From assembly GCA_964627525.1 (NCBI GenBank), contig CAZVIA010000001.1, forward strand, positions 72,384 to 136,383: a DNA stretch of 64,000 nt, written 5' to 3'. This document shows positions 1,002 to 37,126 of the stretch, piece after piece; positions within the stretch are counted from its first letter, which is position 1, and each line of letters begins with the position of its first letter. The stretch comes from an uncultured Gammaproteobacteria bacterium. GTDB lineage: Bacteria; Patescibacteriota; Patescibacteriia; Magasanikbacterales; JBBTQS01. Position numbers and translations under genes: made by a program. The notes below the pieces were generated by a model. The model was given only the letters and a program-made list of their open reading frames with translations. It had not been told where the DNA came from and did not search any database.

Positions 1002-2324
1002 ATGTTAAAAAAAAATATCCAATCACCTTCGCAAAGGTTTGTTGTGGCTTGTTTAGTGTTGTTAATTTTTTTTGGAGTAAAAGTTTACATACAAGAGCAA
1101 ATTTTGGCAAAAAATCATCCGCGATCAAGACAAATAGATTTTCAAGCGCAAGTTGTGCGTGAAGTTTTTGATAAAAATAATTCTCAAGAGTTGGTTGTGC
1201 GTTCAGAAGAAGGTTTGGTTCAGGTGCGCATTCCAAAATATCCAAGTTTTAAATACGGCGACATTATAAATATAAGATGTACAAGATTTTTTCCAGATGC
1301 ATTAGATAAAGATGGTGCACATTATGGTCGTTATTTGCGAATGCAGGGGATTAATTGGGTTTGTAAAAATTCAGAAGTTGAGTGGGTGGGTTATAAAAAA
1401 ATTCTGTCTTTGCGATATTATGTAATTTTTGTGCGTAAAAAAATTGCACAAACAGTTGAAAATATTTGGCCAGAACCACACGCATCTTTTATTGCTGGGA
1501 TTTTGTATGGCGAGCGTAAAGGAATGTCCAAAGATTTAAAAGATAAATTCGCCATAACAGGATTAACACACATCATGGCAGTGTCTGGATATAATGTCAC
1601 AATTGTTGCAAATATTATTTTGGCTTTTTTGGCAGCAATCGGAGTGCGCAGAAAACGTGCATTTGGTTTTGTTTTAGTTGGAGTTGCATTTTTTGTAGTG
1701 CTGGTTGGTGGAAGCGCATCTGCAGTACGTGCTGGGATTATGGGAGTAGTTGCTTTGTTAGGTAGGACTTTGGGTCGTGGCAATAATGCTGCAGCTCTTA
1801 TAATTTCAGCTTCAATAATTATGACATTGCACAATGAAATGGTTTTGCTTTATGATGTGGGATTTCATTTATCAGTACTCGCAACAATTGGTTTAATTTA
1901 TTTTTCGCCAATTATTGAAAAATTTTTGCGATGGGTCCCGGGGATTTTTGGGTTGCGCGAAATAATTTCAACAAGTGTGAGTGCAATAATTTTTACCGCG
2001 CCATTAATCAGTTTTGTTTTTGGAAAAGTCACAGTTGTTTCTTTAATCACAAATGTTTTGGTGTTACCAGTGATTCCAATTTTAATGTTACTGTCCGGAG
2101 TCGCGATGTTGTTTGGTTTATTTTTAAAACCAGCTGGAGTTTTATTAGGTGTGGTAGCCTGGTTGTTAAGTTCGTATGTTTTATTGATTGTAAAAATATT
2201 TTCCGAGTTAAGTTTTGCATCTCTAAGTTTTGCAATGCCGTTGTGGGTCGTAATTATTAGTTATTTAATTTTATGGATTTTAATTTTTCAAAAAAACAAA
2301 TTATTGGATTGGTTGGAATCTTGA
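1002..2324 (+). CDS. comEC: ComEC/Rec2 DNA-uptake channel, N-terminal and competence domain (multi-TM)
   Basis: ITGLTHIMAVSGYNV competence-domain motif and many TM helices. The ORF ends inside an A7 tract; the MBL domain continues in another frame. Confidence 0.8.
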   Translation: MLKKNIQSPSQRFVVACLVLLIFFGVKVYIQEQILAKNHPRSRQIDFQAQVVREVFDKNNSQELVVRSEEGLVQVRIPKYPSFKYGDIINIRCTRFFPDALDKDGAHYGRYLRMQGINWVCKNSEVEWVGYKKILSLRYYVIFVRKKIAQTVENIWPEPHASFIAGILYGERKGMSKDLKDKFAITGLTHIMAVSGYNVTIVANIILAFLAAIGVRRKRAFGFVLVGVAFFVVLVGGSASAVRAGIMGVVALLGRTLGRGNNAAALIISASIIMTLHNEMVLLYDVGFHLSVLATIGLIYFSPIIEKFLRWVPGIFGLREIISTSVSAIIFTAPLISFVFGKVTVVSLITNVLVLPVIPILMLLSGVAMLFGLFLKPAGVLLGVVAWLLSSYVLLIVKIFSELSFASLSFAMPLWVVIISYLILWILIFQKNKLLDWLES

Positions 2325-3148
2325 TTTTGTTGTTAGGTGTGTTGAGTTTTTACTTGTACAACTTTTTTGTTCATGCTCAAATTCATTTTTTAGACGTTGG
2401 TCAAGGTGATTCAATTTTAATTCATGCACCACATAATCAGCAGATGTTAATTGATTGCGGATATAATGATATTGTGATTGAAGCTCTTGGTCGGAAAATG
2501 AATTATTTTGATCGCACAATTGAATATTTAGTTGTGACGCATAGTGATCGTGATCATTTTGGAGGTTGCTTAGATGTTTTGGATAAATTTGAAGTCAAAA
2601 ATTTTATTTATAATGGTTTGAATAATAAAAACTTTTTGTGGAAAAAGTTTATAGAAAAACTCCGCGCTGAAAACGTAAATTTTATTCATATAAAAAATTT
2701 GCAACAATGGGAATTAGATAAAATAAAAATTCAAAGTTTGTTTCCGGATTTGGATTTAAAAACAAACAAAAAGATTTTTCCAAAAAAAGATCAAACTAAT
2801 AATAATTTTTCTGTTGTGTTAAAAGTAGAAGCAGGGGAGCAGAGTTTTTTATTATTAGGTGATGCAGAAGTTGCTTTGGAAAAATATCTTGCAGAAAGTT
2901 TTTCAGAAAAATCCAAAGAACCAGAAAAATTAAAAGTTGATTATTTGAAAACCGGACATCATGGAAGTAAAACTTCAACAACAGAATTGATTTTACAAAA
3001 AACACAACCGCAAAAAGCAATAATTTCAGTTGGTGCGGAAAACAAATTTGGACATCCGTCAGGTCGAGTAATTTCAAGATTAAATAGGTATAAAGTGCAG
3101 ATTTACAGGACAGATATGGAGGGAGATATAAGTTTTATGCTATACTAG
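2273..3148 (+). CDS. comEC: ComEC C-terminal metallo-beta-lactamase domain, separate ORF
   Basis: HFLDVGQGDSILIH, VVTHSDRDHFGG and LKTGHHGSK MBL motifs preceded by one TM helix. Overlaps the upstream ComEC ORF by 52 nt in a different frame. Confidence 0.8.
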   Translation: MDFNFSKKQIIGLVGILILLLGVLSFYLYNFFVHAQIHFLDVGQGDSILIHAPHNQQMLIDCGYNDIVIEALGRKMNYFDRTIEYLVVTHSDRDHFGGCLDVLDKFEVKNFIYNGLNNKNFLWKKFIEKLRAENVNFIHIKNLQQWELDKIKIQSLFPDLDLKTNKKIFPKKDQTNNNFSVVLKVEAGEQSFLLLGDAEVALEKYLAESFSEKSKEPEKLKVDYLKTGHHGSKTSTTELILQKTQPQKAIISVGAENKFGHPSGRVISRLNRYKVQIYRTDMEGDISFMLY

Positions 3149-3168: not shown

Positions 3169-4674
3169 ATGAGTTATCGCACATACAAATTGAGCGCACT
3201 TTTTAGTGTATTTTTGTGTTTATTATTTTTAATGCCTTTTGCTACGCCAGCAAATGCAAATACAGGAGTTGGTTTTGTGCCAAGTTCTGGAGTTTGGTTT
3301 TCGCAAGATGTTTTTTATGAAAACGAAACTGTAAAATTATATACAGTTGTTGTGAACAATACATACAAATCACTTTCTGGAATAATTGGTTTTTATGATA
3401 ATGATCAATTAATTGTGGAGACAGTTTTTTCAAATATAAGGTTTGAAGAAGCAAAACAAATTTCAGCAACTTGGGAGCCACAATCTGGTGATCATGATTT
3501 AGTTGCAAAATTTACTCAAGTGACTGGAACTAATGATGATGGTTCAAAAGAAAATTTTGACGGTGCGACTTTTACTGGAGGTGCTTCTGAAGTTAAAACT
3601 TCTCGTTTTGTAGATAAAGATACTGATGGCGATAAGGTCGGAAATGAAGTTGATGATGACGATGACAACGATGGTTTGAGTGATGCAGAAGAAGAAACTT
3701 TAGGTTCTGATCCTGAAAAAACTGATACTGATGGTGATAGTTTGGATGATAAAAAAGAAGTTGATCGTGGTACTGATCCAACTCGTGCTGATACTGATGG
3801 TGATGGTGTTGATGATGATAAGGATGTGTTCCCAACAAACAAAGGAGAGTGGAATGATATTGATGGTGACGGGCAAGGGGATAATTCAGATTCAGATGAT
3901 GATAATGATGGTTTGTCTGATGATGATGAAAAAAATTATGGTTCAGATCCATATAAAAAAGATACTGATGCAGATGGTTTAAATGATAAAGAAGAAATTG
4001 ATTTTAAATCAGATCCAACTAAACCTGATACTGATGCAGATGGTTTAACAGATTATGAAGAAAGAGATTTTGGAACTGATCCTGAAAAAACTGATACTGA
4101 TGGTGATGGTTTAAGTGATTTTACTGAAAAAGAATTAGGTACTGATGCAACAATGGTTGATACTGATGAAGATACTTTGGCTGATGGTGATGAAGTTAAA
4201 GCTGGTACAAGTCCTTTGTTTCAAGATTCAGATGCTGATGAGGTAAATGATAATGTCGATGCTTTTCCAATGAATAAAGCTGAAACTGCTGACACAGATG
4301 AAGATGGTGTTGGAGATAATGCTGATGAAGATGATGATAATGATGGTTTAAATGATGTGCAGGAATTGGAGATGGGGTTAGATCCTTTGAAAGCAGATAC
4401 TGATGATGATACTTTGAGCGACAAAGATGAGATTGAAGTTACTTTGACAGATCCTTTGAAAGCAGATACTGATGAAGATGGTGTTAGTGATGGGGTGGAA
4501 GTTCAGGAGGGTACTGATCCAAATTCAGCTGATTCAGTTCCAGATTTGCCAGATGAAGAAGGTGAAGGTGGGTCAATGTCAATGCAAAAAGTTTTGACTT
4601 TTCTAGCAGTTGTTTCTTCTTTGTGTGTGTTATTTTTTGCAGGACTATATGTGTTCAAGCGCAAAGAATCTTAG
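3169..4674 (+). CDS. cell-surface acidic Ca-binding repeat protein (thrombospondin type-3-like DxDxDGxxD repeats) with C-terminal TM anchor
   Basis: Signal peptide MSYRTYKLSALFSVFLCLLFLMPFATPANA. About 20 DTDGDGLSD / DTDADGLND repeats. C-terminal hydrophobic anchor VLTFLAVVSSLCVLFFAGLYVFKRK. Confidence 0.7.
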   Translation: MSYRTYKLSALFSVFLCLLFLMPFATPANANTGVGFVPSSGVWFSQDVFYENETVKLYTVVVNNTYKSLSGIIGFYDNDQLIVETVFSNIRFEEAKQISATWEPQSGDHDLVAKFTQVTGTNDDGSKENFDGATFTGGASEVKTSRFVDKDTDGDKVGNEVDDDDDNDGLSDAEEETLGSDPEKTDTDGDSLDDKKEVDRGTDPTRADTDGDGVDDDKDVFPTNKGEWNDIDGDGQGDNSDSDDDNDGLSDDDEKNYGSDPYKKDTDADGLNDKEEIDFKSDPTKPDTDADGLTDYEERDFGTDPEKTDTDGDGLSDFTEKELGTDATMVDTDEDTLADGDEVKAGTSPLFQDSDADEVNDNVDAFPMNKAETADTDEDGVGDNADEDDDNDGLNDVQELEMGLDPLKADTDDDTLSDKDEIEVTLTDPLKADTDEDGVSDGVEVQEGTDPNSADSVPDLPDEEGEGGSMSMQKVLTFLAVVSSLCVLFFAGLYVFKRKES

Positions 4675-5446
4675 TGTAAAACTTAGTTTAAATTTTGGTG
4701 CATTTTTAATAATAATTTTGTTTGGTGTTTTTGCTTTTGCAAATAATGTGAGTGCTGAACAAGATTTTGTGATACAAGATAGTGATAATGATGGGTTGTC
4801 AGATTATGATGAACAAAATTTATATTATACAAACCCTCTGAATCCAGACACTGATGGTGATGGTTATTTTGATGGTCAGGAAATAAAATTTGGTTATTCG
4901 CCGCACATGGGTGATGGTGTTCGCTTGTCTAAAAATGATTTTGATAAAGATGGGATGAATGATTATTTAGAAATTGCGTTTCATACCAATTTAATAAATC
5001 CAGACACTGATGGTGATGGTTATTTTGATGGTTTGGAGTTGAGGTATAGTTATGATCCGCGGATTTTTGTTCCTAAGAAAATTAAAAAACGAATTATTGT
5101 GGATTTATCTGAACAAATGTTGCGTTATTATTGGGATGACATAAAAATGGGGGAGTTTTTAATTTCTTCTGGGCGTGCTACAGTACCAACTCCTTTGGGA
5201 AAGTTTTCTATTAATACAAAATTACCTGTGCACACATATTCAGGTGCAAATTATTATTACCCAAATACAAAATGGAATATGCGTTTTCATGGAACTCCGC
5301 CGTATTCATATTATATTCATGGAGCTTTTTGGCATGATAATTTTGGTACACCAATGAGTGGTGGTTGTATAAATGTTTCTTATGATAAAATGGAAGGGTT
5401 GTATCATTGGGCAGAAATTGGGACTGAAGTTGAAATTATAGAATAA
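4649..5446 (+). CDS. L,D-transpeptidase (YkuD domain) with N-terminal TSP3-like Ca-binding repeats
   Basis: Signal peptide, then NPDTDGDGYFDG repeats twice. C-terminal HG(T)...SGGCIN catalytic motif typical of YkuD L,D-transpeptidases. Confidence 0.75.
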   Translation: MCSSAKNLSVKLSLNFGAFLIIILFGVFAFANNVSAEQDFVIQDSDNDGLSDYDEQNLYYTNPLNPDTDGDGYFDGQEIKFGYSPHMGDGVRLSKNDFDKDGMNDYLEIAFHTNLINPDTDGDGYFDGLELRYSYDPRIFVPKKIKKRIIVDLSEQMLRYYWDDIKMGEFLISSGRATVPTPLGKFSINTKLPVHTYSGANYYYPNTKWNMRFHGTPPYSYYIHGAFWHDNFGTPMSGGCINVSYDKMEGLYHWAEIGTEVEIIE

Positions 5447-5475
5447 AAATTATTGTTTATGGTTGAAAAATTTTT

Positions 5476-6165
5476 ATGAAAAAAACTATTGTTATATCAG
5501 TTGGTGGTTCAGTTGTTGTGCCAGCAAAAGGTGATGGTGTTGCAGCTTTAAAAAATTTGCGCGCACTGTTGTTTGAGTTTTGTAAAAAAGGATATAAATT
5601 TATTTTGGTTGTTGGTGGTGGTGTAACTTGTCGTGAATATAGGGATAGATTAATAAAGTTGGGTGTTAAGGAGCGAGATGATTTAGATTGGATGGGAATT
5701 TTTGCAACACATTTAAATGCAAAATATATTGCGCGTGCTTTACAACCAGTTGCTGATAAAGAAATTATTATAGACCGCAACACTAAGAAAAAGTTTTTGA
5801 AAAAAATAATGATTGCTGGTGGTGATAAACCTGGATCTTCAACAGATCATATGGCGGTTTTGTTAGCTAAAAAATTTGGAGCGGATTTTGTGGTAAATTT
5901 AAGTGATGTTGATTATATTTATTCTGCAGATCCTAGAAAAAATCCTAACGCTAAAAAATTTACTTCTTTGAGTTGGGATCAAATGCAAAAAATTGTTGGA
6001 ACAAAATGGTCTCCTGGAATGCATTCACCATTTGATCCTGTAGCTACTGCTTTGGCACGAAAAAAAGACGTTGATGTGGCTATGGTGAGTGGTGCGAAGT
6101 TGGGGGAGTTGAAAAAGTTGTTAAATGGTGGGGATTTTAAAGGGACTTGGGTTAGTAATAAGTAG
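5476..6165 (+). CDS. pyrH: amino-acid-kinase family protein, most likely archaeal-type UMP kinase
   Basis: GGSVV, VVGGG and GG.KPGSSTD..A.LLA motifs. About 229 aa, collinear with short archaeal-type PyrH. Confidence 0.65.
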   Translation: MKKTIVISVGGSVVVPAKGDGVAALKNLRALLFEFCKKGYKFILVVGGGVTCREYRDRLIKLGVKERDDLDWMGIFATHLNAKYIARALQPVADKEIIIDRNTKKKFLKKIMIAGGDKPGSSTDHMAVLLAKKFGADFVVNLSDVDYIYSADPRKNPNAKKFTSLSWDQMQKIVGTKWSPGMHSPFDPVATALARKKDVDVAMVSGAKLGELKKLLNGGDFKGTWVSNK

Positions 6166-11326: not shown

Positions 11327-12855
11327 TTTCAGATTATACAAAATATCGTATCTATGAGACTTTACCTGGGTTGCTGATTTGGGCTGTTTTGATTGGTGGT
11401 TTTGTGTTCTCATTTATAAAGCCACTTTGGGTAATTTATTTTATTATTATTTTTGATATTTTTTGGGTGCACAGAGTTGTATATTTTTCAGTTTATCTGA
11501 CAACTTCAATTATCAAATACAAACAAGCACAAAAAACAAATTGGCACGAAAAACTTAAATTAGAAAAACCAGAATGGAAAGAATATCTGCATTGTATTTT
11601 TTTGCCAGTTTATAATGAAGAAGAATATGTTGTGCGTTCTTCAATTGAAGCTTTATTAAAAGAAACAATGCCTTCTGAACAAATGATTGTTGTGTTAGCA
11701 GGGGAGGAGCGTAAAAAAGAACACTTTGAAACTTTTTGTTATAAAATGCAAAAAGAATATGGTCATAAGTTTAAACATTTCATGGTGACAATTCACCCAA
11801 AAGATTTGCCAGATGAGATTCCTGGAAAAGGTTCTAACACACATTTTGCAGCTCATTTAGTTCAAAATTATATTGATGATTTGGGTATCCCATATGAAAA
11901 AGTAATTGTGAGTAATTTTGATATTGATACAATTGCGCATCCACAATATTTTAGTTATCTAACTTATAAATATTTAAGTCAGCCAGATCCAACTCGCGCT
12001 TCTTATCAGCCAGTGCCTTTGTATAATAATAATATGTGGGAGTCGCCGTCAGTTTTAAGAGTGATGGCTTTTGGTACAACTTTTTGGTTGTTAACAGAAT
12101 TACCGCGACCAGATCGCATGATTACTTTTTCTTCTCATAGTATGAGTTTTAAGGCGTTAGTTGATGTTGGTTTTTGGGAAAAAAGAATTGTGAGTGAGGA
12201 TTCAAGAATTTTTTGGCAATGTTATTTGCATTATGAAGGTGATTATCAAACAGTACCAATGTATTTGCCGGTTTCAATGGACACTGTTCGTGATGATAAT
12301 TGGTGGGTTTCTATTAAAAACTTATACAAACAGCAACGTCGTTGGGCATGGGGTGCAGAACATATTCCTTTTTTGCTTTGGCACTTTCCAAAAAAACCAA
12401 AAATTTCTTTGTTTTGGAAATTCAAATATTTGTTTAACATGATTGAGGGAAAATTTTCTTGGTCAACTGCAGCTGTAATGATTTTGGTTTTTGGTCGTCT
12501 TCCTTTGTGGGTTGCTGGAGATGAAGTTCGTCAGACAGTTTTATTTCAAAACACACCACATATTTTAGAGTGGTTAATGGGAATTGCAATGCTTGGTATA
12601 CTAGTTTCAATGACATATAGTTTGGCAATGTTACCACCACGACCAAATTCAGCTAGATCAAAACAAATGTTAATAATGGTTTTGCAGTGGGTGTTGTTGC
12701 CAATTTCTTTGTTAGTAGTTGGTGCAATTCCAGCAATTGATTCTGTAACAAGATTAATGTTTGGAAAATATTTAGGTTTTGATGTTTCAAAAAAACAACG
12801 TAAAATTTTAGGAGTACACACAGATTATGTTCAACAAAAACAAGGACAAGCATAA
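11323..12855 (+). CDS. membrane-embedded processive family-2 glycosyltransferase (cellulose/chitin-synthase-like)
   Basis: LPVYNEEE GT2 start, NFDID (DxD), QQRRWAWG (QxxRW) and TM helices at both ends. Confidence 0.7.
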   Translation: MISDYTKYRIYETLPGLLIWAVLIGGFVFSFIKPLWVIYFIIIFDIFWVHRVVYFSVYLTTSIIKYKQAQKTNWHEKLKLEKPEWKEYLHCIFLPVYNEEEYVVRSSIEALLKETMPSEQMIVVLAGEERKKEHFETFCYKMQKEYGHKFKHFMVTIHPKDLPDEIPGKGSNTHFAAHLVQNYIDDLGIPYEKVIVSNFDIDTIAHPQYFSYLTYKYLSQPDPTRASYQPVPLYNNNMWESPSVLRVMAFGTTFWLLTELPRPDRMITFSSHSMSFKALVDVGFWEKRIVSEDSRIFWQCYLHYEGDYQTVPMYLPVSMDTVRDDNWWVSIKNLYKQQRRWAWGAEHIPFLLWHFPKKPKISLFWKFKYLFNMIEGKFSWSTAAVMILVFGRLPLWVAGDEVRQTVLFQNTPHILEWLMGIAMLGILVSMTYSLAMLPPRPNSARSKQMLIMVLQWVLLPISLLVVGAIPAIDSVTRLMFGKYLGFDVSKKQRKILGVHTDYVQQKQGQA

Positions 12856-14335
12856 AGACAAATATAAAGAGCAAAAATCACACACTTGTATGTGGTTGGT
12901 TTTTTTGTTTATTGCACTTGCTGTTGGGTTGGGAATTTGGGGATATCGTTTTAGTAAAGATATGGTAAATGATTTTAAGGAAGAGTTTAAATTAATTGGT
13001 GAGGATTATGGTGAGTCTCTTTCTTCTGTGCAAGAAATAATGCCATATTTTTTAGGAACAGGTGGACAGAAAAGAAAGATTTTAGTTTTATTACAAAACA
13101 ATACTGAATTGCGGCCTACAGGAGGTTTTATTGGAACATATGGAATTATAGAAATTAAAGATGGAGAATTATTAGATTGGTTTATACAAGGAACTGAAAT
13201 TTTGGATGGTGCTGCAAATCCAGATTCTTTGCAAAAATCTCCAGAGCCACTTGAAAAATATATGGTTCAGCCAGTTTATTATTTTAGAGATGGAAATTGG
13301 TCTCCGGATTTTCCAACAGCAGTGAACAATTTACTTGTTCAGTATAATCAGGAAACAGGAACTGATACAAAGTTTGATGGTGTGGTTGCAATCAATGCAA
13401 CTGTACTTGAAAGAATGATGGAATATATTGGAAATATAGAAGTTGAAGGTGTTGAATTGCGTGCAGATAATTTTATTGAGCGTTTAGAGTATGAAGTTGA
13501 GTATGGTTATGAGCAACGAGGTCATAGTTTTGAAAATAGAAAGAATTTTATTCCAAAAGTTTTTGAAGAAATTTTAAAAAAGTTTGAAGAGGATCCTATG
13601 GGATTGTGGCCAATGCTTGTGCGTGTGCCTTTGGAAAGTTTAATGGATAATCATATTTTGTTGTGGTCTGCAGATACTGAAGTTCAAGAAAATATTTTAA
13701 AGCAAGGTGGTTCAGGTCAGGTGCATAAGTTGCATGAAAAGCAAGATGGTTTTATGGTGGTTGATGCAAACTTAGCAAGTTTAAAAACAGATCATGCAAT
13801 TGAGAGATCTTATGATTATAAAGTTTCAAAAGATGAGTTATTAGACAGGTGGAATGGTGAGTTGACAGTGACGTATAAACACAATGGAACTTTTGATTGG
13901 CGTACAACAAGGTATAGAAGTTATACAAGATTTTACTTACCAAAGGGTGCTAATCTTGCTGATGGTGAAGGTGCTATGGTAAAAGATAGAAGTGATGAAC
14001 AAGGTGCTTTTCAAGATTGGGGTGAGGAATTTGGCAGAAAAGTATATGGTGCTTTTATTTCTGTTGAGCCAGGACAGACTCATGTTTTGAGGATTAAATA
14101 TCAACTTCCAGAAAATATTGATAAAGCAATAGAATCAGGGTTGTATACACTTTTTGTTCAGAAGCAACCTGGACTTCATAATCCTGAATTGACTATTGCT
14201 CTAGATTTTGGTAAAAATATTACTGCAGCTGCACCTGGAGAAGATGAGTCACAATGGGGTGACACAAGTTATAAAATAAAGACTGATTTGCGAGTTAGTC
14301 GCAATGTCTGGGTGGAGTTTCAAAAAACAAAATAA
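12827..14335 (+). CDS. DUF4012-like secreted/membrane-anchored protein
   Basis: N-terminal TM, then the LLQNNTELRPTGGFIGTYG motif characteristic of DUF4012. Overlaps the GT2 gene, so likely functionally coupled. Confidence 0.55.
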   Translation: MFNKNKDKHKDKYKEQKSHTCMWLVFLFIALAVGLGIWGYRFSKDMVNDFKEEFKLIGEDYGESLSSVQEIMPYFLGTGGQKRKILVLLQNNTELRPTGGFIGTYGIIEIKDGELLDWFIQGTEILDGAANPDSLQKSPEPLEKYMVQPVYYFRDGNWSPDFPTAVNNLLVQYNQETGTDTKFDGVVAINATVLERMMEYIGNIEVEGVELRADNFIERLEYEVEYGYEQRGHSFENRKNFIPKVFEEILKKFEEDPMGLWPMLVRVPLESLMDNHILLWSADTEVQENILKQGGSGQVHKLHEKQDGFMVVDANLASLKTDHAIERSYDYKVSKDELLDRWNGELTVTYKHNGTFDWRTTRYRSYTRFYLPKGANLADGEGAMVKDRSDEQGAFQDWGEEFGRKVYGAFISVEPGQTHVLRIKYQLPENIDKAIESGLYTLFVQKQPGLHNPELTIALDFGKNITAAAPGEDESQWGDTSYKIKTDLRVSRNVWVEFQKTK

Positions 14336-25503: not shown

Positions 25504-26049
25504 ATGAAAAAGGCAACCTACTTGTTGTTGGCAGGGCTAGCGCTCGTTGCGCTGGTCTGGCCAATCTTGGCAACAGCATCTCAACCGTCAGACGACGCGG
25601 GAGAGCAGTTGTGCCAGGTTTGGCCGGGGATTTCGTTCTGCATGTCAGCACCCGACGAGGTCGTGGTTGCTGGCAGTGATCTGTTGTTCACGTTCGATGA
25701 TCAGAGCGCGCCGCAGATCCTGATGCAGGACAAGAACGGGTTGTTCATGGTGACGGGGCTGATCCAGGTTCCGTATGACCAGTTGGCAGTGCTGATGAGC
25801 CAGAAACTCGTCGGACTGCTGATCTGGGAAGATGGGCAAGGTCGTATTCTCATGCAGGCGCCCGACGGGCTCTTCGTGTGGTGCGACAAAGCAGAAGGCA
25901 CGTGCTTTATCATGGAGAAGAAGCCGGCGGAGAGCGGCGACTTCATCATGCAGAGCAGCTTGATCATCGGACCGTGTACTGGGAATCTCATTCTGGTGAA
26001 CAAGGCTTGGGGTGGTCCGATCGTGCCAATCAACATCGTGTTCTGTTAG
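25504..26049 (+). CDS. secreted hypothetical protein, horizontally acquired (about 57% GC against a 33% GC genome)
   Basis: Signal peptide MKKATYLLLAGLALVALVWPILATA. SD aaaggaggg precedes the ATG. Strongly GC-rich codon usage unlike neighbours. Confidence 0.7.
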   Translation: MKKATYLLLAGLALVALVWPILATASQPSDDAGEQLCQVWPGISFCMSAPDEVVVAGSDLLFTFDDQSAPQILMQDKNGLFMVTGLIQVPYDQLAVLMSQKLVGLLIWEDGQGRILMQAPDGLFVWCDKAEGTCFIMEKKPAESGDFIMQSSLIIGPCTGNLILVNKAWGGPIVPINIVFC

Positions 26050-28390: not shown

Positions 28391-30325
28391 TTATCTACCT
28401 CTGCCTCTGCTTCTACCTCTACCCCTACCCCTACCTCTTTTGCCATGTTTGGGCTTGGAAGGCTTGCGAACTGTTTTCGCAGGCTCGGTAGTTTTTACAG
28501 GTATGCCACCAACCACTTCTTCAGATTTATTTTCTTCAGAAGTCGGTTCAATAGAGTCTCGCAATATCACCAACTCAAGAATGTAAGTAGTTTTACCTGA
28601 TAGGAATCGAGTTGCTCGCATTTCTTCTAGGTTGTAGTCAACCCATTCTGCGATTTTTTGATGTTCGAGCATTACCGCGATTTTAACCATCAAATAGCGA
28701 AACAATGTTATGTGATCATTGCCAGCTTCTCCACGACCCTTTGCAATCCAGCGGCGCATGTACCAGCCTTGACGTTTTGACCGATTTGCTTTGAGCCAGC
28801 TATCATCACCTCTAACATTTGATTCAATCTGCGCAAAGTCATCTATGCTAGCAAGCCACCATTCTTCCAGCCAACTTGATAGCTCTTTTTTTGCATCTTC
28901 ACTTAGTATTGTTGCTGACATTGGTATTGCCCAATTTGCCAGCTGCACAAGCTGAATTTCATCTTCAGAAATATCTTTTAGTCTGTTAAACAAACTATTC
29001 ACAAATGCTGAATTTAGTGATGTCTTGTTAAAGCTGTGTCTTGTTGTGCCAGAGGGGTTTTTGGCTATAGTAGGCCACCCAGATTCAGGAATCATGTCAT
29101 ACAAACGCATCATCTTTCTAACTTGTGTGATGTAAGGATCCCAGGTTCTGCCAGCTTTTTCTACTTCTGTTTTCTCAACAGCAATTCCATTGAAATAATG
29201 CACACCAATTGCAAGCAAAAATTTCCAATTGCCATTATAATGAGCTTTAGGTAAGCTCACCGAACTACGAGTTGCCACAGGTTCACAATTATCTGAAGTA
29301 TTTAGCTTTGCAGAAAAATTTATTGTAGGACAACTAAGTTTTATTGCTACAGGATTTACTGCATAGAGATTAGTATCTGGTTCTGAGGTGATATTTGAAG
29401 CTAGTTTTTCGATTTCTTGGAGTTTGCCAACCTTACTTGTATATTGTGCATTGGCATGATCAGGTGTTGTGGCTAGTGTGGATTTTTCAAAAGCCGCAGC
29501 TTTTTCAGGTACTACTTCTTTGATAGATTCCCAAGTACATTCCCTTTCTCTTTTCTCTTGAAGCAGTGCTACGAGTTCTTCTGATTTCACACCCTTGAAC
29601 GGATTGCTCATGTCTTCATCAGTAGCTTCTGTTGAAACCGCATCAGAAGTGTCAGTAGGAGGTTCATCAACTTGATTTTCGCTTCTAACAATCGCAGAAA
29701 TATAAATCGTCACAAGAGCACCAATAATCAAACCGACAGCAAGACCAGAATACAAGCGTAGTTTGCGCTTATTTTCTTGCAGTGCTATTAAGTGTTTTGT
29801 ATATTCATCACGCTCATCTTTTGGTAGATCTTGGAAAGGAATTATTTTTCGTTCAAGAAGTGCATCATAAGCTGCTCTTGTTATTGATACACGATGACCA
29901 CCATCGCATTCTTGGAGGTGGGACAAAGTGCATATGCTATGTATAAATACACCTTTTTCATCTTCTTCTTTGTCAGAACCAATAAGTGCATTCCAACAAG
30001 AGACAAAAAATCCAATTACAGAATCCAAGATTCTAGGCAGAGTTCTTCCACTCCATTTCCAGATACTCACAAGAATATATAGAATAAAGTTAAGAGCTTT
30101 TCTTACTACGGATGGTTTGTGTAGTCTACCACTAAGAGATTCTATTTCTTCAGTAGCTTCACCTTCATCCTCATCTTTGCTCTTACCTTCACCTTCTTGA
30201 ATTATAAGCTGTGTTTTTTCTGGATCAGATTCACCAGGAATCCTAATCTTAACTTCTTTGGGTTCCATATCTTGAGGTACTCCAGATTTGTCTGTATCAG
30301 TAGGCGGTTTTTTTACATCACTCAT
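28391..30325 (-). CDS. large hypothetical membrane protein with acidic N-terminus, two TM helices and a C-terminal RG-repeat tail
   Basis: The tail is ...KPKHGKRGRGRGRGRSRGRGR*. GC is somewhat above background. No recognisable catalytic motif. Confidence 0.5.
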   Translation of the reverse strand: MSDVKKPPTDTDKSGVPQDMEPKEVKIRIPGESDPEKTQLIIQEGEGKSKDEDEGEATEEIESLSGRLHKPSVVRKALNFILYILVSIWKWSGRTLPRILDSVIGFFVSCWNALIGSDKEEDEKGVFIHSICTLSHLQECDGGHRVSITRAAYDALLERKIIPFQDLPKDERDEYTKHLIALQENKRKLRLYSGLAVGLIIGALVTIYISAIVRSENQVDEPPTDTSDAVSTEATDEDMSNPFKGVKSEELVALLQEKRERECTWESIKEVVPEKAAAFEKSTLATTPDHANAQYTSKVGKLQEIEKLASNITSEPDTNLYAVNPVAIKLSCPTINFSAKLNTSDNCEPVATRSSVSLPKAHYNGNWKFLLAIGVHYFNGIAVEKTEVEKAGRTWDPYITQVRKMMRLYDMIPESGWPTIAKNPSGTTRHSFNKTSLNSAFVNSLFNRLKDISEDEIQLVQLANWAIPMSATILSEDAKKELSSWLEEWWLASIDDFAQIESNVRGDDSWLKANRSKRQGWYMRRWIAKGRGEAGNDHITLFRYLMVKIAVMLEHQKIAEWVDYNLEEMRATRFLSGKTTYILELVILRDSIEPTSEENKSEEVVGGIPVKTTEPAKTVRKPSKPKHGKRGRGRGRGRSRGRGR

Positions 30326-30408: not shown

Positions 30409-30525
30409 AAGATAGCACCTTATCAAAAATCACCAAGTTTGTCAAGTCTAATGTGCTATTTCAATGGGTTTATTAGCTTTTAATTTACTTGACTTTTTGT
30501 TATAATATGCATACAATCAATACCT

Positions 30526-32280
30526 ATGATAAAAAAAACTTGGGAAAATATAAAGAAATATAAAAAAACAAGCATTGTTGGGTTAATAGTTTTAATATTA
30601 ATTTTAATGTCAGTGTTTAGTGGTGGAGAAGAAATAGTGCGCGAAACAATTTATGTTGAAAATAATTACATAATTCAAGAGGTGAGTGTAACTGGAAATG
30701 TAAAAGCAGCCGATGAAGTTAGTTTAGGTTTTGAACAATCTGGAAAAGTTGGCAAAGTAAATGTAGAAGTTGGGCAAGTTGTAAAGGAGCGAGATATTTT
30801 AGCTACTTTAGTTGGTACTGGCTCTTATGCAAGTTTGCAACAAGCTCAAGCAAGTGCTCAAAGTTCTCAAGCTTTGGTTGATCAGTATAAGCAGGCGTTA
30901 ACAAAGCAAGAAACTGATTTAAAGGAATTAAAATCTGGTCCAAGAATTGAATCAATAGTTGTTGCTCAAACAACAGTTTCAAATGCTGAAAAATCTGCAA
31001 AACAAGCACAAGATAATTATGATGCAATTTTGGCAAAAGCTGATGATGATTTAGTGCAAGTTTATGATGATATAGATGATGTTTTACATACAGCTTATGC
31101 AAAAGTTAATGACGCAGTGCGTCGTTTGACAGATCCTTTGTTTACTAAAGATACATCTGTAAATCCACAACTTACTTTTACTACTTCAAATTCAAGTGCA
31201 AAAAGTCTTGCTCAACAAATGAGACATAAGGCAGAGATAGCTTTGGTTGAATTAGCAACAATTACTTCTAATATTCCAACTGATGAACTTGGAAAAATAA
31301 ATGCACTTACAAGTGCACAAGTAGCATTAAACACAACACGTGATTTTTTTAATGCTTTAACAACTGTAATGAATAGTGCGTCTGGTTTTGATGCAGCAAC
31401 TTTAGCAACTTATCAAAATAATGTTAGTACTGGAATGAATACAACTGTTACTCAAACAACAGCCATATTAGCTCAAATACAATTAGTGAGCACTCAAAAA
31501 AATACAAATCAAAATAGCATTACAACTGCGCAAGTAAGTTTAACAACAGCTGGAAATACTTTATCTGCTGCTCAAGAAAATTTGAATTTGGTTTTAGCTG
31601 GAGCAACTGCTGGTGAGATTCAAGCTCAAGAAGCTTTAGTTGAGCAAGCTCGTGCAAATTTTAGATCTCAACAAGCTTTGCTTTCAAGTGCATGGGCTTC
31701 AATTACTCAAGCGCAGGCAGTTTATAATCAAACAATAATTCGTGCGCCGTTTACTGGAATAATTACAAAACAAGATTTGCAAGTTGGGGAGATTGTATCA
31801 GCACAAACAGAACAAATTTCAATGATTTCAGATGTTGAATTTGAAATTGAGGCATTTGTTCCAGAAGTTGATATCGCAAAAATTTCTGTAGATGATGAAG
31901 CTCTGGTGACTTTAGATGCTTATGGTGTTGATCAGGAATTTATTGCAAAAGTTGTATCAGTAGATCCTGCAGAAACTGTTATTGAGGGTTTGTCTACTTA
32001 TCGTGTGCGTTTGCGTTTTGCAGAACAAGATGAACGAATTAAATCTGGTATGACTGCGAATGTAGATATTTCAACTGATAGACGTGATGATGTTTTGGCA
32101 GTACCACAGCGTGCATTAGTTCGTAAGGATGGTAAAAGATTTATTAGGGTTGTTGATGGTGCAAAAACACATAAGGAAGTTGAGATTGAAACTGGTTTGC
32201 GCGGTTCAGATGGTTTGATAGAAATTATAAGTGGTTTAATTGAAGGTGATGAGATTGTAACTTATATAGAAGAAAAATAA
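30526..32280 (+). CDS. efflux-pump periplasmic adaptor (HlyD/MacA-type membrane fusion protein)
   Basis: N-terminal TM, long Q/A-rich coiled coil, IIRAPFTGIITK...VGEIV lipoyl/beta-barrel motifs. First gene of an adaptor-ATPase-permease operon. Confidence 0.75.
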   Translation: MIKKTWENIKKYKKTSIVGLIVLILILMSVFSGGEEIVRETIYVENNYIIQEVSVTGNVKAADEVSLGFEQSGKVGKVNVEVGQVVKERDILATLVGTGSYASLQQAQASAQSSQALVDQYKQALTKQETDLKELKSGPRIESIVVAQTTVSNAEKSAKQAQDNYDAILAKADDDLVQVYDDIDDVLHTAYAKVNDAVRRLTDPLFTKDTSVNPQLTFTTSNSSAKSLAQQMRHKAEIALVELATITSNIPTDELGKINALTSAQVALNTTRDFFNALTTVMNSASGFDAATLATYQNNVSTGMNTTVTQTTAILAQIQLVSTQKNTNQNSITTAQVSLTTAGNTLSAAQENLNLVLAGATAGEIQAQEALVEQARANFRSQQALLSSAWASITQAQAVYNQTIIRAPFTGIITKQDLQVGEIVSAQTEQISMISDVEFEIEAFVPEVDIAKISVDDEALVTLDAYGVDQEFIAKVVSVDPAETVIEGLSTYRVRLRFAEQDERIKSGMTANVDISTDRRDDVLAVPQRALVRKDGKRFIRVVDGAKTHKEVEIETGLRGSDGLIEIISGLIEGDEIVTYIEEK

Positions 32281-34332: not shown

Positions 34333-34374
34333 AATTTATGGTATAATTATTCTGGTGAAGAATAATTTTTTAGT

Positions 34375-34995
34375 ATGCAAAAAAAACCCGGAACCAAACA
34401 AAAAGAAAAGAAAAGTTTCCTGAAAATGGAAATAAATATTGGTGGAACTAGCTTGGCAGAAAAAGCAGTTTTTGCAAAACATTTGTCTGTGATGTTGAAA
34501 TCTGGCTTAACAATTGCAGAAGCTTTAAATATTTCTCAAGATTCAGCACAAGGAAAAATGAAAAAAGTTTTGCAAAGTGTTTTAACTTCTGTTGAGTCTG
34601 GTCAGCCTTTGTCTGTTGCGTTTGGTCGGCATCCAAAAGTTTTTACAGGAATATTTATTAGTGCAACACAAGCTGGTGAAACTTCTGGAACTCTTTCCGA
34701 AAATTTAGAACACTTAGCAGAACAACTTGAAAAAGATAAAGAGCTTGTTGCAAAAGTTAAAGGTGCTGGGTGTGGAGTTTGTGGGGATACTGGTTTTACA
34801 GGTCGTATTGGTGTGTTTGAGGTTTTGGAAATGACAGATGGTGTTAAAGAATTGATTTTGAAAAATGCTTCAAGTGATGAAATTTCTGCTGCTGCAAAAG
34901 CAGAAGGTATGACAACAATGATGGAAGATGGTATTAATAAGGTTTTGAGTGGGGCAACAACTCTTGGTGAGGTATTAAGAGTTACTAGGGAATAA
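34375..34995 (+). pseudogene. chimeric remnant: type II/IV secretion platform protein (PilC/GspF T2SSF domain) fused to a PilB/GspE ATPase C-terminal fragment
   Basis: Residues about 25-120 (AVFAKHLSVMLKSGLTIAEALNI...GQPLSVAF..FISATQAGETSGTLSENLEHLAEQLE) look like one T2SSF repeat. Residues about 130-206 (GCGVCGDTGFTGRIGVFEVLEMTDGVKELI...DGINKVLSGATTLGEVLRVT) look like the zinc-binding C-terminus of a PilB-type ATPase. Neither parent is full length. Confidence 0.5.
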
Positions 34996-35168
34996 AGCAA
35001 AAGAAACAGAATAAAAAGTAAAATTTGTGGGAAATAGGGGGTTTTTGGTGACCGCTTGCTTTGTTATTGCTTTATAATGTAAAATATAGTTTCCAGTGAG
35101 TTTTAAAAAAGTTTTAAAAAAGGGGTTTAATAAAAGGATTAATAATTTAATATTTAATACAAAAATTT

Positions 35169-35994: not shown

Positions 35995-36028
35995 AAAAAA
36001 AAAGAGTGCACTTCGCACTCTTTTTTGT
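35995..36028 (+). terminator. intrinsic terminator
   Basis: A-run, agagtgc acttc gcactct hairpin, T6. Confidence 0.6.
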
Positions 36029-36052
36029 TATAATTTATAAGAACAAAAAACT

Positions 36053-37126
36053 ATGGAAGAATTTTTACAATTTTTAGATCAATATAATTATTTTGGAAAT
36101 TCAGGGCGTGAATATTTTTATGCTTTGATAGCTTTTGTAGCAACCATAGTAATTTTAAAACTATTTCAATTAATAATTTTAGTAAAAGTTCGTAAGTGGG
36201 CAGAAAGCACAAAAACAAAGTTTGATGATGTTTTGCTAGATGTTATTAGTTCTGTTAAAACTTATTTTTACTTTATTTCAGCGTTGTACTTATCGTTTTT
36301 GTTTTTGGTTGTGCCTGTTTGGCTAAATCGCGCGGTTGCAATATTGTTTTTAATTTCTGCGACATTAGAAGTTGTTCGAGCAATAGATGGAGTGATTGAT
36401 CATCTTTTAGAAAGATATCAAAAACAATTAGAAGAAAGTGGTGGAAAAAGAGCTACAAGCAAACCAATTATAAATGCTACAAGAGTTGCTTTGAAAATAA
36501 TTGTCTGGTTTTTGGCGGTTACAATAATTTTGTCTAACTTGGGTGTAAATGTCACTTCTTTAATTGCAAGCTTAGGTGTTGGTGGAATTGCAATTGCTCT
36601 GGCTTTAAAAAATATTTTAAGTGATATTTTTAGTTCGTTTACAATTTATATTGACAAACCTTTTGAAGTGGGGGATACAATTGTTGTTGGAACAGATAAA
36701 GGTAAGGTAGAAAAAATTGGCCTGAAATCAACTCGTTTGCGAACACCACTTGGAGAGCAATTAATTATTTCAAACCAAGAGTTGACAACTACTAGGGTTC
36801 AAAATTTTGAACAAATGAAAGAGCGTCGTGTGCTTTTGCAGTTACAAGTTGAATATGGTACACCACACACAAAATTGAAAAAAATTCCTGGGATGTTGAA
36901 AAATCTTGTGAAAGAAGAAGGTCTTGTAAGATTTGATCGTTGTAGTTTTGCTGATTTTATGGATTCTGGTTTAATGTTTGAGTTGTCTTATTATGTTCAA
37001 ACTACTGACTACAAAAAATATATGTCAGTGCGGCAAAAAATTAATATTGCGATTTATCGTGCGTTTGAACGTGAGGAAATTGTGTTTGCATTCCCAACGC
37101 AAACAGTTTTTGTGCGAAAAGATTAG
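36053..37126 (+). CDS. small-conductance mechanosensitive channel (MscS family)
   Basis: TM helices followed by the DKPFEVGDTIVVGTDKGKVEKIGLKSTRLRT beta-domain signature. Confidence 0.8.
   Translation: MEEFLQFLDQYNYFGNSGREYFYALIAFVATIVILKLFQLIILVKVRKWAESTKTKFDDVLLDVISSVKTYFYFISALYLSFLFLVVPVWLNRAVAILFLISATLEVVRAIDGVIDHLLERYQKQLEESGGKRATSKPIINATRVALKIIVWFLAVTIILSNLGVNVTSLIASLGVGGIAIALALKNILSDIFSSFTIYIDKPFEVGDTIVVGTDKGKVEKIGLKSTRLRTPLGEQLIISNQELTTTRVQNFEQMKERRVLLQLQVEYGTPHTKLKKIPGMLKNLVKEEGLVRFDRCSFADFMDSGLMFELSYYVQTTDYKKYMSVRQKINIAIYRAFEREEIVFAFPTQTVFVRKD

Follow-up and report, generated by a model that had tools for sequence, protein, structure and literature searches.

The window analysed here, a stretch of 64 kb, consists of housekeeping and envelope DNA from a low-GC, Patescibacteria-like genome. 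One part of it carries, in this order, macA, the macB ATPase gene, the macB permease gene, a 206-codon gene, a DsbA-like gene and an MscS gene. The 206-codon gene is real, and it consists of the front domain of PilC spliced to the last 75 residues of PilB (Table 1). The open reading frame (ORF) is present as a sequence-only reading had described it, on the forward strand and with an ATG start. Starting at Met18 instead gives the shorter protein of the NCBI record (P0001). The upstream ATG is favoured as the start because the N-terminal extension that it adds resembles the PilC N-termini of relatives.

Table 1. The chimeric ORF, its parts, and the signals around it (window coordinates)
Feature	Position	Strand	Remarks
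Chimeric ORF	34375..34995	+	206 codons plus stop, ATG start
PilC-derived part, residues 1-131	34375..34767	+	native pilC start and complete cytoplasmic domain 1, ending right before TM1
PilB-derived tail, residues 132-206 and native stop	34768..34995	+	second CxxC, one beta-strand, C-terminal helices
Second CxxC (Cys133, Cys136)	34771-34782	+	within the PilB-derived tail
Alternative start, Met18	34426	+	yields the 189-aa protein that the NCBI record annotates (P0001)
Junction microhomology AAA GGT GCT (Lys129-Gly130-Ala131)	34759..34767	+	encoded by pilC and pilB alike
GC-rich hairpin, 12-bp stem, GCAA loop	34303..34330	+	33 nt past the macB stop; resembles a terminator for the macAB operon
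Perfect extended -10 promoter-like element TGGTATAAT	34339..34347	+	ends 27 nt before the chimera ATG
Extended -10 motifs TGNTATAAT	30498-30506, 34339-34347, 36026-36034	+	before macA, the chimera and mscS, respectively

The gene is set off from the macAB operon, as the earlier reading had proposed. The segment 34268-34345, which includes the hairpin, folds at -27.9 kcal/mol (z = -4.8, with 0 of 200 shuffles as stable); a consensus terminator scan missed the hairpin because its T-run is weak. The promoter region ascribed to the gene also has a counterpart, in the form of a promoter-like extended -10 element. The motif TGNTATAAT has four matches in the window, which is the number expected by chance, and three of the four lie 27-36 nt upstream of plus-strand starts (macA at 30526, the chimera at 34375 and mscS at 36053). 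This placement suggests, as pattern evidence, that the three copies are real promoters, and that the host organism may use short-leader promoters without a recognisable -35 element. Transcription of the chimera probably starts from an extended -10 promoter of its own. Its GC content, GC3, strand skew and codon usage equal the genome mean, and the idea of a recent foreign acquisition is rejected on this ground.

Several other genes of the window deserve a brief description. A 181-aa ORF at 25504-26049 (+), between tRNA-Tyr and tRNA-Thr, has a signal-peptide-like N-terminus, a GC content of 0.56 (genome, 0.345) and the highest GC3 of the window; it matches nothing in Pfam or Rfam and is possibly a horizontally acquired secreted protein. 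Divergent to macA, a 644-aa ORF at 28391-30325 (-) without a Pfam match has an acidic N-terminal region and a RGRGRGRSRGRGR C-terminal tail. A gene for a DUF4012 protein (12827-14335, +) adjoins mreB. ComEC is split into two overlapping plus-strand ORFs, one encoding a Competence domain protein of 440 aa (1002-2324) and the other a Lactamase_B protein of 291 aa (2273-3148). The split recurs in all assemblies of this population and is either natural or a frameshift. The chimera had been described as lying next to ComEC, which overstates their proximity, since ComEC (1002-3148) is 31 kb away.

Profile and structure databases identify both halves of the chimera, and the match of the two halves to PilC and PilB is confirmed to be far beyond chance. 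Pfam assigns residues 33-130 to T2SSF (E 3e-22) and residues 118-202 to T2SSE (E 2e-11), the latter covering no more of the 370-position profile than 290-370. In NCBIfam, the PilC/GspF models cover residues 11-131 or so, and the PilB/GspE models of the same collection match about residues 116-205 with their extreme C-terminus. Among sequences in the PDB, residues 24-131 align with the PilC N-domain of crystal structure 2WHN (E 1e-16) and residues 127-204 with PilB/PilF chains. The 2WHN construct and the PilC fragment of the chimera end at the same point. The measured split is therefore 131 plus 75 residues; the sequence-only reading had estimated about 120 residues for the T2SSF part and about 75 for the tail. 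Its view that neither parent is complete also holds, with a single T2SSF repeat on one side and the end of the T2SSE profile on the other. The tail is a PilB/GspE C-terminus and retains only the second CxxC, which is half of the zinc site.

The PilC half shares 66 % identity with P0002 and P0003, two intact PilC proteins. About residues 24-131 are alike in sequence and fold to PilC/GspF proteins (PF00482; 2WHN, 2VMA/2VMB/3C1Q, 5NBG), which differ from the chimera in having two T2SSF repeats and three transmembrane (TM) helices; the chimera has one repeat, no TM helix and no membrane platform. With the PilB/GspE/PilF proteins (PF00437; 5TSG/5TSH, 5IT5/5OIU, 1P9R/4KSS) the chimera shares its last 75 residues; identity to the tails of PilB proteins from Parcubacteria relatives is 58-71 %, and the stop position is the same. 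The 71 % value is that of the L001 PilB tail, and both proteins end in RVTRE followed by the stop. Among GTDB genomes, a Candidatus Parcubacteria MAG is the nearest match to the pil genes.

Structure prediction gives a sharply two-part picture. AlphaFold2 was supplied with a shallow but correctly registered alignment that contained six N-domains and three tails as exact substrings. The pLDDT is 90-97 across the PilC bundle (about residues 25-125), below 50 at residues 129-149 (the junction, the half zinc knuckle and the beta-strand) and 56-75 for the tail helices. In Foldseek searches, the confident part resembles the cytoplasmic domains of EpsF, OutF and PilC (2WHN, 2VMB, 5NBG; TM-scores 0.8-0.9, rmsd 1.3-1.9 A), so that the helical-bundle fold of cytoplasmic domain 1 is present; for the tail, no more than a local match to about the last 50 residues of PilB/PilF results. 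According to these models, the gene would give a soluble PilC N-domain followed by a poorly structured tail.

The elements on which platform and motor function depend are missing. The chimera has no TM helix, with a top 19-residue hydropathy of 0.91 as against 2.8, and three hydrophobic regions, in the PilC protein P0003. The second T2SSF repeat is absent as well (one Pfam stretch as against two in intact relatives). Walker A, Walker B, the Asp box and the His box are all lacking; the PilB of L001, used for comparison, has GPTGSGKT, RQDPDI and TGHLV. The N1 (MshEN/GSPII) and N2 domains present in the relatives' PilB proteins are absent, as is the first CxxC. The tetracysteine zinc site is accordingly incomplete, with only CGVC at 133-136 in the chimera and both CEKC (444) and CKVC (491) in the PilB of L001. 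The conserved C-terminal tail past the second CxxC is present. According to PMC11656802, PilB-type ATPases cannot function without the zinc motif. Lacking TM helices, a second T2SSF repeat, the Walker, Asp and His boxes and half of the zinc site, the chimera is neither platform nor motor.

The join itself lies within a short stretch that both parents encode. The PilC part of the chimera runs to KELVAKVKGA, after which TM1 (MLYP...) comes next in intact PilC, and the PilB part opens at GCxVCGDTG, the second CxxC. At this point, the PilC proteins of relatives read K-V/I-K-G-A|M (DNA AAA GGN GCN|ATG), and their PilB proteins read Y-K-G-(N/A/G)|G-C (DNA AAR GGN (AAY/GCG/GGT)|GGN TGY). The pilB of L013 has AAG GGT GCG GGT TGT, which encodes K-G-A-G-C. 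In the chimera, the tblastn match of PilC (ending at 34767) and that of PilB (starting at 34759) share exactly the nine bases AAA GGT GCT. The alignments indicate that the join is probably an in-frame crossover inside a microhomology of 5-9 nt carried by pilB and pilC. The retained frame and the position of the junction at domain borders follow from this shared microhomology, and selection is not needed to explain them.

Gene order in relatives bears directly on how such a join could form. In 9 of 9 independent loci that hold both genes, pilB is directly followed by pilC on the same strand; among these loci are those of the four closest relatives and of other CPR lineages, together with one from a Hyphomicrobiaceae MAG and one from an Oscillibacter MAG. 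The earlier observation that the chimera reverses the usual order is borne out by this comparison with related genomes. Two apparent further fusions, in L007 and L008 (query match 3-205 within about 700 bp), proved to be normal neighbouring pilB and pilC genes, across whose boundary the match runs. The surroundings of pilB vary among relatives: L013 and L014 have a larger DUF4012 protein (812 aa; L013 534-2972) just upstream of the pilB-pilC operon, and L007 has an 862-aa ORF (3410-5998) at the same position. On a 2.4-kb contig (L012, NCBI GCA_044240345.1), a 320-aa ORF at 1223-2185 (P0030) stands in the place of pilB, directly upstream of a normal pilC start. It combines about 210 N-terminal residues unrelated to PilB with the last 110 or so PilB residues, and is another truncated or chimeric pilB.

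The chimera is isolated from pilus genes. The window contains no pilin, PilM, PilT or PilD gene and no further piece of pilB or pilC, and no pil genes occur in about 16 kb of added flank from longer contigs (about 9 kb on the left and 7 kb on the right). PilC/GspF genes, in contrast, normally lie in a pilus or secretion cluster with pilB, pilins and pilM. The limits of the pil-derived DNA are almost exactly the start and stop of the chimera. DNA and protein alignments of its flanks revealed no remnant of a pilB 3' end or a pilC 5' end when compared with shuffled sequences (p = 0.2-0.9). Relaxed scoring of the downstream flank gave p = 0.04-0.09, as against p = 0.06 for a negative-control comparison. 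Two candidates picked out by eye were rejected in this way: a decayed second pilC 5' end after the stop (KQKKQNKK-stop-NLWEIGG), whose alignments were no better than those of shuffles, and a pilB 3' end before the chimera ATG, whose shuffle-tested alignments gave the same range of p = 0.2-0.9. No trace of an insertion scar was detected at the site.

The nearest MacB relative (75 % identity) offers a view of the same site without the chimera. It has macA, macB, macB and, further on, an orthologue of the dsbA-like gene (54 %), with order and strand unchanged. Between macB and dsbA lie 9.3 kb of pentose-phosphate and redox genes, with no pil genes among them, which argues against an ancestral pilus locus at the site. 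The argument is moderate and not decisive, because the relative is distant (GC 0.45 as against 0.34). When MacB was used as an anchor in JGI metagenome contigs, the best identity was 53 % and synteny was limited to macAB. Further genomes, those holding P0191, P0192, P0193 (on a 931-kb contig) and P0194, have a MacB of 69-71 % identity.

The architecture is apparently unique. A word-indexed search of 5.8 billion protein clusters found no second protein of this kind; only the query's own cluster carries both domains, and every other cluster match is either a PilB or a PilC protein some 360 aa long (identity up to 66 %). HMMER, run against 1.84 billion representatives, scored the chimera itself at 386 bits and a PilC as next best at 156 bits, and did not find the architecture again. 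On the strength of these sequence searches, a PilC-N/PilB-C protein of about 200 aa appears to exist in this population only. Its halves are fragments of T2SSF and GspE, and the combination is not widely conserved. The suggestion of a novel minimal fusion is an unlikely but conceivable reading that finds no support in conservation. The databases, assemblies of the same samples among them, contain no PilB or PilC whose identity to the halves exceeds 66-71 %; the chimera is thus not recently copied from an operon of the same genome that was assembled too. One intact PilC, P0005, shares the window's mix of sources and was considered as the same genome's pilC, a candidacy ruled out by its origin in other samples.

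Within the population, assemblies from ENA, Logan, JGI and NCBI, which draw on several runs and samples, agree at this locus to 99.995-100 %, and the contigs concerned measure 6.8-142 kb. The junction is identical in ENA ERZ23499057 and ERZ23498963, in Logan SRR8062331 and SRR9166041, and in the JGI and NCBI assemblies. Copies this alike leave no basis for a dN/dS estimate. Another sample contributes a 640-bp contig (L101, ENA ERZ23498963) that is 100 % identical to window positions 34550-35041 and has the same junction. Its first 148 nt are unrelated, with the break inside the PilC part, and are due either to a chimeric end of the contig or to structural variation in that sample.

The sequence of the chimera carries no sign of decay (stops, frameshifts, lost conserved residues or faster evolution), although it is truncated with respect to both parental families and its architecture is missing from relatives. 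None of the 17 PilC N-domain positions that are at least 90 % conserved is changed. The root-to-tip distance of the PilC half is 0.241, the shortest in its tree, as against a median of 0.315, and that of the PilB tail is 0.29, as against 0.26-0.34 for genuine PilB tails; in both comparisons, the homologues were chosen by similarity to the query. An intact ORF with all conserved PilC residues and without a long or accelerated branch fits a young relic and a gene under purifying selection equally well.

Given this evidence, we incline to regard the gene as a young, lineage-specific chimeric by-product of microhomology-mediated recombination between pilB and pilC, isolated from pilus genes and without platform or motor function. 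Chimeric genes can form at the junction of a tandem duplication or out of a circle that is excised between two short direct repeats. Illegitimate recombination between direct repeats of 5-9 nt would have made the present one. In an intramolecular exchange, the chromosome would keep PilB-N::PilC-C, and a circle of about 0.65-0.75 kb would carry PilC-N::PilB-C; in an unequal exchange, PilC-N::PilB-C would be placed at the junction of a tandem duplication. Since pilB lies upstream of pilC in all relatives, a gene that runs from a pilC 5' end to a pilB 3' end corresponds to the reciprocal product rather than to the remnant of a deletion. Like duplication-junction chimeras, it is joined in frame at a 5-9-nt repeat, takes its 5' part from the downstream gene and its 3' part from the upstream gene, and keeps the native start and stop. 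It departs from them in that an intact pilB upstream and an intact pilC downstream are absent and no scar accompanies it. We infer that the chimera was probably relocated or re-inserted, because the nearest relative has no pil genes at the site. Should the genome have an intact pilB-pilC operon whose two genes each carry AAAGGTGC, the chimera would be a relocated duplication-junction or circle product.

A second chimera shows that products of this polarity do arise. The metagenomic protein P0066 (442 aa) consists of about the first 335 residues of a PilC followed by roughly 105 residues from the end of a PilB, and it is also a singleton, located on a 1.35-kb contig without context. It differs from the chimera in the position of the junction in both parents and in the retention of TM helices. 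With only 32-34 % identity and different breakpoints, it represents an independent event.

Four observations count against the by-product reading. The unbroken ORF, with its conserved residues kept and no lengthened branch in either half, suits purifying selection just as well; the coincidence of the pil-derived DNA with the limits of the ORF is not predicted by neutral relocation; the promoter-like element is of the same type as those of bona fide neighbouring genes; and no trace of a parental locus or of an insertion scar is left. The chimera most likely has no essential role.

Several of these observations lend some weight to the alternative that the gene encodes a functional mini-protein, in which a soluble PilC domain 1, with or without the PilB tail, may bind the PilB/PilT hexamer or PilM and thereby tune or block pilus assembly as an endogenous decoy. 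The unbroken ORF with its conserved residues and unaccelerated rate, the confidently folding N-domain, the extended -10 promoter of its own and the agreement between ORF ends and pil-derived DNA would all suit such a protein. PilC cytoplasmic domains are thought to touch the ATPase hexamer, and small proteins are able to inhibit PilB (PMC11656802). Opposed to this are the lack of any homologue of the architecture found, and hence of any sign of selection over time, the near-identity of the copies, the poorly ordered tail with its half zinc site, and a host genome in which no pilus motor is seen across the window and its added flank. On these grounds, a functional mini-protein is unlikely.

Natural precedents exist for both ingredients of this alternative. 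In P0140 and P0145, as in the chimera, platform-type cytoplasmic material lies N-terminal to the ATPase in one polypeptide: one or two soluble T2SSF-type domains take the place of the N1 domain on a PilB-type ATPase. They differ from the chimera in keeping the whole ATPase (N2 and a CTD with P-loop), in having only about 36 % identity to it, and in belonging to unrelated GC-rich organisms. P0140 is a stand-alone gene that adjoins an ECF-sigma/TPR gene in two samples (L019 4216-5787; L020 3865-5436). A literature search found no relevant description of T2SSF/T2SSE fusions, the P0140/P0145 architecture included. Another variation on the ATPase occurs in P0073, P0107 and P0170 (about 1000-1018 aa), which have two complete T2SSE modules in tandem per polypeptide. 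The second precedent is functional. Aqs1 and Tip, small phage-encoded proteins, inhibit PilB (PMC11656802; PMC13436744) and, as small soluble proteins acting on the pilus motor, provide an analogy of function only. Neither is related to the chimera in sequence or fold, and binding of the chimera to the motor is hypothetical.

The sequence-only reading had favoured a fossil of a deleted type IV pilus locus. In the simple sense this is not supported, since a deletion between pilB and pilC would leave PilB-N::PilC-C and not PilC-N::PilB-C, and neither the flanks nor the corresponding site of the nearest relative contains detectable pil genes or remnants. A modified version, in which pilC once lay upstream of pilB between macB and dsbA and a single deletion took place between KGA repeats, needs a single event. 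It accounts for the native start and stop, the clean intergenic flanks and the gene's own promoter, and the want of closer intact parents in any database is consistent with loss of the locus. It requires, however, a gene order opposite to that of all nine independent loci, the four closest relatives among them; the nearest relative with the macAB...dsbA frame has non-pil genes only in between, and no pilins, PilM or other remnants lie nearby. An origin in place is accordingly quite improbable.

That the chimera is an assembly or sequencing product without biological reality is extremely improbable: the sequence is metagenome-derived and the short contig L101 does carry an unrelated end, but the same junction and flanks were assembled independently by different pipelines from different runs and samples, and a microhomology of 9 nt is too short to mislead k-mer assemblers.

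The by-product reading and its alternatives differ in what the gene would mean for the organism. If it is a relic only, it is a clean natural case of an in-frame K-G-A microhomology in adjacent genes giving a tidy, domain-bounded chimera. It also calls for caution in annotation, as it passes the Pfam thresholds for both T2SSF and T2SSE while being neither. Patescibacteria are reported to have well-conserved type IV pili that are predicted to aid symbiotic interactions (PMC11623550), and if the rest of the genome lacks pilB and pilC, the chimera would mark the loss of these pili in a Patescibacteria lineage. If it is expressed, its peptides would span the join (...KVKGAGCGVCGDTGF...). A more far-reaching version of the mini-protein alternative, and one that must be called quite unlikely, is that the gene is a newly born, expressed "mini-PilC" with a one-step origin at a microhomology of every pilB-pilC pair, which docks on the PilB/PilT hexamer (or PilM) and acts as a brake or decoy on the type IV pilus or DNA-uptake motor of an episymbiotic CPR bacterium. 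Were the chimera expressed and bound to the motor, it would be a case of the de novo birth of a regulator from the parts of a machine.
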